Of a DNA stretch of 64,000 nt, positions 18,856 to 27,225 are shown one piece after another (position 1 is the stretch's first letter; each line of letters begins with the position of its first letter). The DNA lies in contig JBCCNK010000001.1 of the NCBI GenBank assembly GCA_039025875.1, forward strand, positions 9,147 through 73,146, written 5' to 3'. The notes beneath the pieces are model-generated. The model was given only the letters and a program-made list of their open reading frames with translations. It did no database searches and was not told the DNA's origin. This DNA is from Pseudomonadota bacterium (lineage in GTDB: Bacteria; Pseudomonadota; Gammaproteobacteria; Pseudomonadales; Halieaceae). The position numbers and the translations under genes were made by a program.

Positions 18856-20955
18856 CTAACTGCAATCGCCACGGCCGAGTGCGCTTGCGATGATGTCGCG
18901 GAACACGTCGCCAACGGCTTTGAACCCTTCGTCCGAGGGATGCAGCTCATCGGCCCATCGGCCGGCAACGATCCCGCGCACGTCGACGTGCCAAGCATTG
19001 CGGAACGCGCCGTTGGAGTTGTTGCCGCCGCAAAGCGACTTTTGCAGCTCGTTGAGCCGGTTGATCAGCAGGCTGACAATCTCGCGTTGCAGGTCATGGT
19101 CCGTGATGCCCAGGTCCTCGCGGAGCGGGCGCCCGATCCACTGGTCCTGCTTGGCCCAGAACGGGTCGCGCTCATCACCGGGGAAACCGCCGGGAATGGC
19201 GTGATCGTAGCCATGGCAGACAATCGGCAGGCCGGGATGACCGGCGGTGACGTTTTGTATGACCTTGCGGTAACAATCATCGACTAATCGCAGCTTGGCC
19301 GCGAAGGCCTCGTTGTCGACGTACCACTCAGGTGGTCGTCCGGCTTCGAAGGGTTTCACGATTTGCGCAATGATCGAATTGCCGTCCTCGTCCTCACCGA
19401 CAATGTCATTGCCACCCCCGGAAAACAGGAATGCCTTGACGTCGTCCCTGTGCTTGTCCAGCGCCCGCAGGTACTCGGCATTGTCGAGCACCATGTTCTG
19501 TAGCGTGTCGCCAGCCGCGCCAACGCTCCAGATGTTGTAGTCGGGCATGACCTGGTCGATGACGTCGTCCAGGAAAAGCGGGAACTGGTACCAGCTGTCG
19601 CCCTCCGAGACGAGGACAAGGCGCTCATCGCCGCGCCGCCGCCGGCGTCGGAACCGCCGCTGACGCCGTAGGCGGCAGAGCCCGATGGCCCAGGACATAA
19701 CCATCGCGCCTTCGAGCGCGTCTACGGGCGCGGCGATCTCGACTCGATCGGGGTCGGGCAGTATCGCAAGCGAGAACGGGCGCGACGTCTCGAGGTCGGT
19801 GACGAAGTACTGACGGAGCTCCGCGTCCGGAATATCGAGGTCCGCCATCTTTGCCTGCAGCTCGGCCATGGAGATGCGGCGCGGCGGGACGTTGCCGCCC
19901 GCCTCGGCCGCGGTCTCGAATGCGGGCGCGACAGGTCGCGAGAGCGGAGCCAGTATTTCGCTGGCGTCCCGCAACGGCCTGAAGGTCCGATTCGACTCCA
20001 GTGCCGCGAATTCGGCCGGCGCCGCGAGGTCATACCCGGCGCCCGCAAGCTCTCGTTCGAATTTCTTGACGATGCGCGATTTGTCGGCACGGATCAGATC
20101 GTTACTGAACCAGATAATGCGCCTCAGTGCGGCGAAGTGTTCCTTGACCTTTTCGACCGGGTCGCCCTGCTTGCCCGCCCGGCTCACTGCATCCCATCCC
20201 TTGCGAATCTCGGGAATACTGGCGTAGTCGTCCCGGTGCTCGTGTGCCTCGATGCCGAGGATCATGTAGGGGAAGCCATCGACTGGCTTGCCCTCTGCAT
20301 CGATCAGTTTGAAGTCAGTCGGGTCGATCCGAAGTTTGCTCGGGTCCAGCGTCCCTTTCTCGACGCGGGCCACGAGGATATTGCCGGTACGCAGGTTTGT
20401 ATCGGTGCGGGTCAGGCCAATTTCCAGTTCTGCCTGATTGTCGTCACCGAGCAGCGCCTCTGCCCCCGTGCGAATTGTGTCGACAAACGGCTTCGCCTGG
20501 GCCAGGAAGGCCACCGATGCGGTTTCGGTCAGGCCAGCCAGCATGTTGAGGTAGGGTTTCGCCAGGTCGGCAGCGGAGATCGAGAACAGGGCGACGTCCA
20601 TGCCGAGTTCGCCGCGATAGGGTATTGGGCCAAGCAGGGGTTGGTTCACGACGATGAAGCGATCGAGATTCTTCGGGTCCATCTCCTGGAAGGCCTTGTC
20701 CGGCGCAACGACCGCCATGACCTCCTGTTTGCCGACATCCCGATCGGTGTAGGTGAACTGCGCGTGCACTGCGGCGTGGAACTTCTTGGTCCAGCGCCTG
20801 ACCTCGGTGATCTTCGCGGAGCGCAACCAGACGCGGACGTACTGTTCGTCTGGCTTGACGGTGCCGGATGCGCGGTCGTCACCAATGTAGCGGTGAGTGT
20901 AGTCCACGGTTTCCTTGCCCTTCAGCTTCTTCAGCAGGTCTGACAAAAAACTCAT
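18856..20955 (-). CDS. Putative effector: uncharacterised N-terminal ~310-aa domain fused to a C-terminal SGNH/GDSL hydrolase
   Basis: EGDSWYQFP (catalytic Ser), GAAGDTL, FLFSGGGND, WADELHPS (Asp/His). Confidence 0.8.
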   Translation of the reverse strand: MSFLSDLLKKLKGKETVDYTHRYIGDDRASGTVKPDEQYVRVWLRSAKITEVRRWTKKFHAAVHAQFTYTDRDVGKQEVMAVVAPDKAFQEMDPKNLDRFIVVNQPLLGPIPYRGELGMDVALFSISAADLAKPYLNMLAGLTETASVAFLAQAKPFVDTIRTGAEALLGDDNQAELEIGLTRTDTNLRTGNILVARVEKGTLDPSKLRIDPTDFKLIDAEGKPVDGFPYMILGIEAHEHRDDYASIPEIRKGWDAVSRAGKQGDPVEKVKEHFAALRRIIWFSNDLIRADKSRIVKKFERELAGAGYDLAAPAEFAALESNRTFRPLRDASEILAPLSRPVAPAFETAAEAGGNVPPRRISMAELQAKMADLDIPDAELRQYFVTDLETSRPFSLAILPDPDRVEIAAPVDALEGAMVMSWAIGLCRLRRQRRFRRRRRRGDERLVLVSEGDSWYQFPLFLDDVIDQVMPDYNIWSVGAAGDTLQNMVLDNAEYLRALDKHRDDVKAFLFSGGGNDIVGEDEDGNSIIAQIVKPFEAGRPPEWYVDNEAFAAKLRLVDDCYRKVIQNVTAGHPGLPIVCHGYDHAIPGGFPGDERDPFWAKQDQWIGRPLREDLGITDHDLQREIVSLLINRLNELQKSLCGGNNSNGAFRNAWHVDVRGIVAGRWADELHPSDEGFKAVGDVFRDIIASALGRGDCS

Positions 20956-21008
20956 GTTCGCTTCCTCCTTGCTGTTTGCGCTCGCGGCCCTGACGCGGTT
21001 ACGGCAGT

Positions 21009-26062: not shown

Positions 26063-26320
26063 TCACCCCACCGTTATCGGACACTCCGTTGCATGTTCGC
26101 CATCGCACTCGAAGGAAGCCTGGCCCTTCCGGTCAGCCGAACCGTGTGCGCCGAACGTGAATCGTCCCTCTGGCAGCAAAAGCTCGAGGACGCCGAACTC
26201 GTCCGTCAACATGGCGATTTCCGGGAAGGGAGCGGAGCTGGCTACGACGGACACCGTGGCTTCGGGGACGGATCGACCGTGGGCGTCTACCACTGCAATA
26301 CGTACGGGCGCTCTGTTCAC
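26063..26320 (-). CDS. Small carboxypeptidase-regulatory-like beta-sandwich protein
   Basis: VVDAHGRSVPEATV...LTDEFG...LPEGRFT. GTGA overlap with the upstream protease stop. Confidence 0.7.
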   Translation of the reverse strand: MNRAPVRIAVVDAHGRSVPEATVSVVASSAPFPEIAMLTDEFGVLELLLPEGRFTFGAHGSADRKGQASFECDGEHATECPITVG

Positions 26321-27225
26321 TGTGCACTCGGCCAGCCCCCGTCGCGCGCCACCCATTCCCGGATCTGCGTCATGACCTCGGGGATGATGCGCGGTGCCGA
26401 ATTTGCCTGGAGGCCTCCCGGAGAACCGCCGACACCATAGGCGTGGATGCCGATGACGATCGGCGGGGCACCCACTTCCTCATGGATCCAGACGGGTGCG
26501 CCGCTCTGGCCGCCAAAGGTATCCACGTCGTAGAACACACGGCGGTCAGTAACGTGAAGCACCTGGTTCCTGTGGTGATACTGTTCCGTACCATTGCCGC
26601 GGTCGCTGGGGTAGCCGGAGACATTGACCTGGTAGCCTGCGAGCTCATCGGGAGTGATCGAGCCTGCGGCGAACCACCCCAGCGTATCGCCAATCGGCTC
26701 TGCAAGGTGGATGCATCCGATATCGAAATCCGGGTCTTCGGATTGCACCCACCGGTCGACCGAGCTGAAGCTTGTACTGATCTTGGTTTCGAATGGCAGT
26801 TCGCTGCCGTTGCGTCCGGGGCTGACCTCGATTGTCGAAGCCCAGCCGCCGAAATAGTAGGTCGAGTAGACGCAATGGCCGGCCGTAATGATGGTTCGCG
26901 GGCCGACGAGCCAGCCCGTACCGATCGTGCTGACCCCGTTGTCGGCGTGCATGCGTAGCGCGCAAATCATGCGCCAGGGATAGAGATCTGTGTCGAGTAC
27001 GCGCACACGATCATCGGTTGGGCCGATGACGCTCTCGAAGGCCGCTCGCGGGCCGCGGGGTTCGGCTCTGCCTGCTGCGCACAGGTACTTCAGAGAGCGT
27101 GAGTCGTCAGAGTCAGTGCCCTGCGCGCCGGACGATATGTCGTTTTCGACGGGGCGCGCGCTGGCTTCGGCAGATTCCAGGCCGGCTGCGGGCTTCGGGT
27201 TCGATACGGACGTGAGCTTGATCAT
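26317..27225 (-). CDS. V8/glutamyl-endopeptidase-like trypsin-family serine protease (no signal peptide)
   Basis: YPWRMIC, GTGWLVG, TAGHC, DFDIG, SGYP, DTFGGQSGAP, IGIH. GGAGAGG RBS before ATG 27225. Confidence 0.92.
   Translation of the reverse strand: MIKLTSVSNPKPAAGLESAEASARPVENDISSGAQGTDSDDSRSLKYLCAAGRAEPRGPRAAFESVIGPTDDRVRVLDTDLYPWRMICALRMHADNGVSTIGTGWLVGPRTIITAGHCVYSTYYFGGWASTIEVSPGRNGSELPFETKISTSFSSVDRWVQSEDPDFDIGCIHLAEPIGDTLGWFAAGSITPDELAGYQVNVSGYPSDRGNGTEQYHHRNQVLHVTDRRVFYDVDTFGGQSGAPVWIHEEVGAPPIVIGIHAYGVGGSPGGLQANSAPRIIPEVMTQIREWVARDGGWPSAQ

Follow-up and report, generated by a model that had tools for sequence, protein, structure and literature searches.

What does an operon do that couples an NLR-like ATPase to two serine proteases and an SGNH hydrolase, and what do its proteases cut? 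The question is raised by six genes, here named g1 to g6 in order of transcription, at 18856-27225 of a 64,000-nucleotide (nt) stretch of contig JBCCNK010000001.1 (assembly GCA_039025875.1) from a gammaproteobacterium of the Halieaceae; this whole stretch is called the window. A sequence-only reading had proposed an inflammasome-like anti-phage system with a lipase or esterase effector. By sequence comparison the operon core is homologous to the LypABC CARD-NLR system of Caulobacter. We consider it reasonably probable that the operon is a programmed-death system of the CARD-NLR/LypABC family, carried as cargo of a mobile element, in which a cascade of Glu-specific proteases would split g6 to kill the invaded cell.

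All six minus-strand open reading frames (ORFs) are present as that reading had described them, co-oriented, with intact catalytic motifs and tail-to-tail with radC, which is separated from the end of g6 by 36 nt. g1 and g2 overlap, and the gaps that follow measure 82 nt (g2-g3), 19 nt (g3-g4), 21 nt (g4-g5) and 53 nt (g5-g6). The domain order proposed earlier (protease, beta-sandwich, EAD1-like/STAND, STAND-TPR, EAD1-trypsin, SGNH) was upheld by Pfam, HHalign and fold matches. g1 matches Pfam Trypsin and, as its best PDB entry, the Bacillus glutamyl endopeptidase 1p3c (E 9e-16). g2 gave a weak CarboxypepD_reg/Ig-like Pfam match below the cut-off; that it serves as inhibitor or chaperone of g1 is a guess. 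g3 has no Pfam match, including none to Pfam iSTAND. HHalign relates its N-terminal end to EAD1 (P 95.8). Its C-terminal end is STAND-like and aligns with the nucleotide-binding domain (NBD) of g4 (P 97.2); in the window copy the P-loop is shortened and the Walker B Glu is missing. g4 carries AAA_16 and TPR matches in Pfam, with K216 and D338 invariant. Conserved motifs in its residues 1-180 resemble, as an impression from the consensus, the winged-helix domain of STAND proteins. Its C-terminal domain may be EAD1-like, the match being weak (P 18, E 0.0013). g5 combines EAD1 (E 1e-14) with Trypsin_2 and retains its catalytic His and Ser, and g6 matches GDSL_2 weakly. No signal peptides were seen when the N-termini of the operon proteins were inspected, and a promoter and terminator scan remained at chance level.

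A profile search of Caulobacterales with g4 matched LypB (E 5e-44). The locus is the lypABC locus of C. crescentus or a near-identical one, as judged by residue fingerprints from Banks et al. (2026, PMC13236601): LypA of 592 aa with S262, T356, S360 and F361, LypB with K230/D335, and LypC of 662 aa with S296, H471 and N505. The HHalign match of g4 to LypB (P 99.8%) covers 589 columns, N-terminal domain to TPRs, and the C-terminal profile of g3 aligns with the divergent ATPase of LypA (316-592) over 226 columns (P 91.3, E 1e-6). LypABC is a CARD-NLR-like system needed for gene transfer agents (GTAs) to be released; LypB's N-terminal domain binds LypA, and LypB has been placed in the CARD-NLR clade together with the anti-phage system of Lysobacter (PMC13236601). 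The link of the operon to tested phage defence would thus be one step removed, via LypB. Because the divergent-ATPase pocket of LypA is essential (PMC13236601), the "inactive" ATPase of g3 is probably non-hydrolysing rather than dispensable. In terms of sequence, g5 and g3 together are a split LypA with EAD1 in place of the CARD.

Of the sequence features of a CARD-NLR system, the operon has the NLR-like STAND protein with N-terminal domain, intact Walker A/B motifs and TPRs, a trypsin-like protease with a helical adaptor (g5), a second trypsin-like protease (g1) and the divergent ATPase g3. The inflammasome-like, protease-activated interpretation thereby gains support from the homology to LypB and the LypA ATPase. 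The effector differs from those of the described subtypes (gasdermin, phospholipase-endonuclease, trypsin-endonuclease), g6 being a C2-like plus SGNH protein and the operon holding no endonuclease or gasdermin gene. The death-like adaptor that had been proposed is EAD1, whose identity with CARD was not detectable by sequence: an EAD1 profile matched neither LypA 1-85 nor 8SRZ/8SS1, giving only a RIPK2 chain (6gwm) at E 1.3. PADLOC and NCBIfam returned no system-level match for the operon; PADLOC gives no NLR match for LypB either, so its negative is uninformative. The Lysobacter and Pedobacter systems were not recovered, since only 1 of 401 genomes of the order Xanthomonadales matched, the query's own.

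The effector gene g6 was examined in an alignment of 46 full-length homologues. Its SGNH fold is well matched (Z 16.2, root-mean-square deviation (rmsd) 2.7, 190 residues aligned), and SGNH blocks I-V (Ser, Gly, Asn and Asp-x-x-His) are present on it; S454, G482 and N516 are invariant in 153 homologues, and D669 and H672 in all 143 that cover them. Among the fold matches are peptidoglycan O-acetyl esterases and transferases (Ape1, PatB). The 312 N-terminal residues are predicted with confidence (predicted template-modelling score 0.83), and the model shows a C2-like beta-sandwich into which a helical hairpin is inserted, followed at the C-terminus by a three-helix bundle. C2 domains dominate its fold matches, led by that of cytosolic phospholipase A2 (cPLA2; Z 8.5, rmsd 2.8, 116 residues aligned), with helical bundles also among the top VIA rows. 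At this modest score, the modelled pairing of C2 and lipase in g6 recalls cPLA2 and phospholipase C. Pore-forming folds gave no match with a meaningful score (aerolysin-type Foldseek rows had probability <= 0.12 and rmsd >25), which is not evidence of a new fold.

Most of the aligned homologues measure 860-985 aa and bear a third, C-terminal domain. In one type it is zinc-peptidase-like, with invariant His/Asp and an H-x-H motif, its best structural match being 9flh (E 0.004), which we take to be the LAS-type endopeptidase VldE; in the other it is lysozyme-like (weak Pfam match). Fusion partners in the family comprise cell-wall hydrolases, nucleases and proteases, the SGNH domain usually being fused to peptidoglycan hydrolases. 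The window g6 stops after the SGNH domain, and no remnant of a LAS domain was found in the window or in the 58%-complete assembly. Other g6 homologues are short as well and end at this point: P0003, which is internal on its contig, P0007, P0009 and P0037.

A Thr190/His213 pair in the S1 pocket gives Glu specificity in the V8 family. T236/H261 of g1 and T305/H325 of g5 align with this pair in V8-family structures, a pocket of the same type occurs in 110 of 126 protease motifs of the loci compared, and both enzymes are predicted from sequence to be Glu-specific. The corresponding predicted cleavage motif recurs at several non-homologous places in four different proteins, where it marks a zymogen junction, a STAND loop and effector linkers. 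In g1 a hydrophobic-Glu bond lies exactly before the point at which the mature chain of the Bacillus enzyme starts, as it does in 21 of 26 g1 orthologues. The otherwise variable linker of g6 holds 73 occurrences of [LF]-E-[SAGT] in the 46 homologues, against 11.1 in shuffles (maximum 20), with LE and ES as the two most enriched dipeptides. E415 is kept in 45/46 g6 homologues and E298 of g4 in 47/51. In 20/26 cases the motif precedes the LAS domain at a distance of no more than 12 residues. Enrichment reaches 2.28 in effector proteins and 1.01 in the genome background. In the model, E320 and E347 fall in segments with a predicted local distance difference test score below 50 and are probably disordered.

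The N-terminal domain of g6 is part of a family that comprises 1026 clusters at 50% identity and has no Pfam, PADLOC or NCBIfam name; most of its members are stand-alone proteins of ~330 aa with a conserved short C-terminal tail. Thirteen loci were compared, from Acidobacteriota, Deltaproteobacteria, Actinomycetota, Bacteroidota and two unassigned metagenome contigs. A conserved serine protease lies directly upstream of the stand-alone gene in 10 of them; the remaining three comprise one that is truncated on its upstream side, one with a frameshift and one divergent locus. This arrangement of protease followed by N-domain gene, as in bacterial gasdermins, suggests by analogy that the N-domain may itself be a protease-activated effector. 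The Glu code does not extend to these stand-alone proteins, since their tails are not enriched in the motif (15 vs 15.4) and their protease cannot be aligned to g1 or g5. The two-gene module is seen in L267:5940-7993, L269:2302-4461, L272 and L274-L280; its proteases have no Pfam, PADLOC or NCBIfam match, and in L275 and L280 the protease sits in a longer ORF with a second protease-like motif. The SGNH effector of the sequence-only reading was right as to fold and conserved residues and incomplete as to the protein: g6 is probably a cleavable polyprotein, more than an SGNH esterase, and its C2-like domain probably acts as an effector in its own right.

Unrelated metagenomes show the same order g1-g2-g3-g4-g5-g6, at identities of ~45-70%. 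It is found in L163/L164 and in L265, where g6 is cut by the contig end; in L165 an additional protease gene interrupts the order and g6 is split, in L162 g1 is broken and there is an extra EAD1 gene, and L080, L082 and L084 show the g3-g4-g5 core with g6 nearby. Trypsin-NucA genes neighbour the close relatives L082, L083, L165 and L166. In the wider STAND family, a trypsin-like gene is present in 75 of 80 GTDB loci, and a g3-like gene lies directly upstream of 84 of 96 STAND ORFs and in the same open frame in 12 STAND ORFs. None of the 80 loci has a g6-like gene, their downstream genes being mostly further trypsins, EAD5 proteins or NucA nucleases; hence the sensor-protease core is widespread and the effector exchangeable. 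A locus search with the single g6 protein gave no matches; alignment-based searches did find homologues. As separate observations, the close relative at L080:13296-22628 has a gene cluster for a contractile injection system, with sheath, tube and Pvc16, at a distance of ~3 kb, and Lipase_3-subtilase fusion genes, protease-linked and lipid-acting effectors, follow g6 homologues within the same operons at L165:18151-20775 and L266:8630-11326.

The nearest described systems share parts of this design. Both LypABC and the operon have an adaptor-trypsin module and a second trypsin-like protease, with g4 corresponding to LypB and the g3 ATPase to that of LypA. LypA-like trypsin-ATPase fusions also occur in the g4 family (L212, L217, L228, L235, L237 and L263). 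Unlike LypABC, the operon has LypA split into g5 and g3, an EAD1 adaptor without detectable similarity to the LypA CARD, a second protease in the form of a stand-alone V8-type zymogen with the small partner g2, and C2-like plus SGNH domains where LypC is a trypsin-endonuclease; LypABC, moreover, serves GTA release. The CARD-NLR anti-phage systems of Lysobacter, Pedobacter and Azospirillum (Wein et al., PMC10312443), to which the link runs via LypB, likewise have two trypsin-like proteases, an effector gene that can be exchanged, and an NLR-like STAND protein made up of a helical N-terminal domain of ~150 aa, repeats and a C-terminal domain that is also helical. Their effectors are gasdermins, phospholipase-endonucleases or trypsin-fused enzymes; SGNH, EAD1 and a separate divergent ATPase are not mentioned.

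The NucA-trypsin "System 3" and EAD1/iSTAND systems (Kaur et al. 2020, PMC7159879; 2021, PMC8195603) resemble the operon in their several trypsins, fusions of EAD1 to trypsin, STAND partners and accessory domains that attack peptidoglycan, as well as in the proteolytic cascade proposed for them. The operon differs in having neither NucA (PF01223 in 0/6 genes and in only some relatives) nor the MoxR-vWA pair, and iSTAND clusters appear only as feature neighbours of g3 (0.92-0.96), which lacks the Pfam domain. SGNH/GDSL is absent from the main text of both papers. Protease-activated effector modules (MBL, alpha/beta-hydrolase, Pepco, EACC1 and gasdermin; PMC12642450, bioRxiv 2025.09.03.673762) offer the same principle of a latent effector freed by site-specific cuts at conserved linker motifs, made by a sensor-coupled protease; their mapped P1 residues are Ile, Ser, Arg or Asp, and those surveys did not include SGNH or the C2-like family. 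An SGNH, C2-like or Glu-specific CARD-NLR variant was not found in the searchable literature, outside which most subscription papers lie. Within that literature, the earlier impression that the operon matches no characterised subtype exactly holds, and we found no description of its Glu-specific pockets and motifs, its unannotated C2-like family or its combination of C2-like and SGNH effector domains.

The operon is cargo of a PFGI-1-like integrative element that also carries BREX (Table 1). The element backbone adjoins it, the contig's left end holds a tyrosine-integrase-like ORF, and the BREX system lies 15-30 kb away on the same contig. The g4 STAND gene had no full-length match among 60 related genomes, which fits horizontally acquired cargo. 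No particle genes adjoin the operon in the window. Between it and two displaced partner genes lies a block of high GC with efflux/ABC genes, insertion sequence (IS) transposase pieces and nuoE/nuoF-like frames, suggesting inserted, partly broken host-type DNA. Both partners are orthologues of the two genes that follow g6 in L163/L164; here they sit inverted and away from g6, beyond IS remnants. The system may be an eight-gene unit that insertion sequences have rearranged here, or a second partial copy may be present, as hinted at by a STAND-like fragment near the partners.

Table 1. Features of the operon and its surroundings, in window positions
Feature	Position	Strand	Description
PFGI-1-type integrative element backbone	11654..18819	+	ParB, STY4528, PFL_4669, ParM/StbA, DUF3577, radC; adjoins operon
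radC	18307..18819	+	Converges with operon
g6	18856..20955	-	699 aa; SGNH residues S454, G482, N516, D669, H672; LAS/VldE-like C-terminal peptidase of most homologues absent
g6 remainder	18856..20019	-	Linker (E320, E347 sites), pro-segment ending E415, Arg-rich helix, SGNH hydrolase
g6 N-terminal domain	20020..20955	-	Residues 1-312
g5	21009..22103	-	364 aa; EAD1 (1-88) and trypsin-like protease; H151, S310; S1 pocket T305/H325; candidate cut between E100 and K101
g4	22125..24932	-	935 aa; NLR-like STAND ATPase; Walker A K216, Walker B D338; conserved E298 motif in NBD loop; TPRs, then helical C-terminal domain weakly EAD1-like
g4 N-terminal domain	24390..24932	-	Residues 1-180
g3	24952..25980	-	342 aa; divergent EAD1-like domain (1-85) and divergent STAND-type ATPase (96-342)
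g2	26063..26356	-	97 aa; small beta-sandwich (carboxypeptidase-regulatory/Ig-like); follows g1 orthologues
g1	26317..27225	-	302 aa; V8/glutamyl-endopeptidase-like serine protease zymogen; H117, D168, S241; S1 pocket T236/H261; predicted pro-peptide cut between E64 and S65, second site E17
Intervening block	27623..35335		Efflux/ABC genes, IS transposase pieces, nuoE/nuoF-like frames
STAND-like fragment	35297..35419	-	41 codons, 44% identical to g4 residues 427-467 (E 0.003); adjoins nuoF-like frame
Displaced partner 1	35560..36258	+	232 aa, EAD1 at N-terminus; 40% identity to gene immediately following g6 in L163/L164
Displaced partner 2	36255..39269	+	1004 aa, hydrophobic N-terminus; 36% identical to following gene in L163/L164
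Defence cluster	40700..59741	+	WYL regulator, BrxA, BrxC, PglX in two genes, GmrSD-like gene, PglZ, BrxL, then PDC-S06 match

In the mechanism that we favour, g4 would sense an intracellular signal of the invader and oligomerise, as its homologues in Lysobacter and Caulobacter suggest. g3 and g5 would then be recruited, through contacts predicted from their homology, and g5 would be switched on. Going by pockets and site conservation, g5 and g1 would cut after Glu in hydrophobic-Glu-Ser/Ala/Gly/Thr sites, maturing g1 at E64, processing the STAND loop at E298 and splitting g6 at E320, E347 and E415. In the last and least certain step, the freed C2-like domain may bind or permeabilise the inner membrane, and the unmasked SGNH hydrolase may attack acyl esters, most likely of membrane lipids, and the infected cell would die. 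Most relatives would also free a peptidoglycan hydrolase, making up a self-lysis kit of which the window copy would hold the membrane-directed part only. The role of the operon in phage defence is what we infer by analogy.

Several points weigh against this reading. The nearest tested homologue, LypABC, drives GTA release, and its nuclease effector domain is dispensable (PMC13236601); intact catalysis thus does not make an "effector" the killer. Many O-acetyl esterases of carbohydrates and peptidoglycan are SGNH enzymes, which leaves the lipid substrate putative; the N-domain of g6 has no Foldseek match at E <= 0.001, its C2 match is modest, and a shared fold shows no function. The Glu motif is barely enriched in whole STAND proteins (1.18x), and the motif counts come from related sequences, whose kinship overstates their independence. 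Further, g6-like genes are missing from the 80 GTDB STAND loci, several g6 homologues have no STAND gene within 10 kb, and the window copy is without the usual third domain and has its two partner genes displaced.

These points leave room for other explanations, one being that the same protease cascade serves regulated self-lysis for the benefit of the element or host, releasing particles, DNA or cargo as LypABC does for GTAs. The GTA role of LypABC, the lysis-type enzymes of the relatives (LAS peptidase, lysozyme, amidase) and the relative beside the contractile-injection-system cluster speak for it. We hold it to be quite unlikely, as the operon is mobile cargo of patchy occurrence with BREX and further defence genes nearby, its effector genes are swapped freely among loci, and particle genes do not adjoin it in the window. 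Killing might instead be due to the C2-like domain alone, through pore formation or membrane damage after gasdermin-style removal of a C-terminal tail, or to an outside target, the SGNH domain being accessory or having cell-wall O-acetyl groups as its substrate. The N-domain does occur mainly as a stand-alone protein with a short conserved tail behind a protease, and the SGNH domain matches Ape1 and PatB and is usually fused to peptidoglycan hydrolases; but the lack of a matched pore-forming fold, the strict conservation of the SGNH catalytic residues and the separate conserved cut site of that domain (E415) make this unlikely. Finally, the family may work while the window copy is a decaying, non-working remnant. 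Although the C-terminal peptidase is missing just before convergent radC, the partner genes are displaced beyond IS remnants and several relatives are split or broken (L162, L165 and L266), all six frames are open with intact catalytic motifs, and short g6 forms with the same end exist elsewhere; decay is accordingly very unlikely.

A side observation concerns LypABC itself, whose lysis effector PMC13236601 calls unknown, in a text that never mentions peptidoglycan. For this reason, a gene at L260:2144-3805 (+), ~0.8 kb upstream of Caulobacter lypA (L260:4578-6356), is by its sequence a candidate for the lysis effector of LypABC. It encodes a LAS-like peptidase, 60% identical to the third domain of g6 homologues, and a second domain; a Leu-Glu-Gly motif precedes the peptidase, and LypC carries Leu-Glu motifs too. 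A 351-aa Caulobacter ORF near lypA looked by eye like a relative of the g6 N-domain and was rejected as unsupported (HHalign E 0.43 and 0.034). In a bolder picture, which we put forward tentatively as possible rather than probable, the g6 N-domain would represent a widespread unnamed class of protease-activated, membrane-attacking C2-fold effectors, held off by a C-terminal tail in parallel to gasdermins. The operon family would be a bacterial inflammasome with a readable Glu code that frees a polyprotein of pore or membrane, lipase and cell-wall hydrolase parts, and reading this code would single out the LAS-peptidase gene, upstream of lypA, as the LypABC lysis effector.

CARD-NLR systems are the closest bacterial parallel to inflammasomes, and how their proteases are activated, what they cut and which agent lyses cells in LypABC are open questions (PMC10312443, PMC13236601). 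To these the operon supplies precise candidate cut sites together with a predicted Glu specificity. With it, the short list of protease-activated effectors grows by an SGNH effector and an unannotated C2-like family of ~1000 clusters, and the missing LypABC lysis factor gains a concrete candidate.

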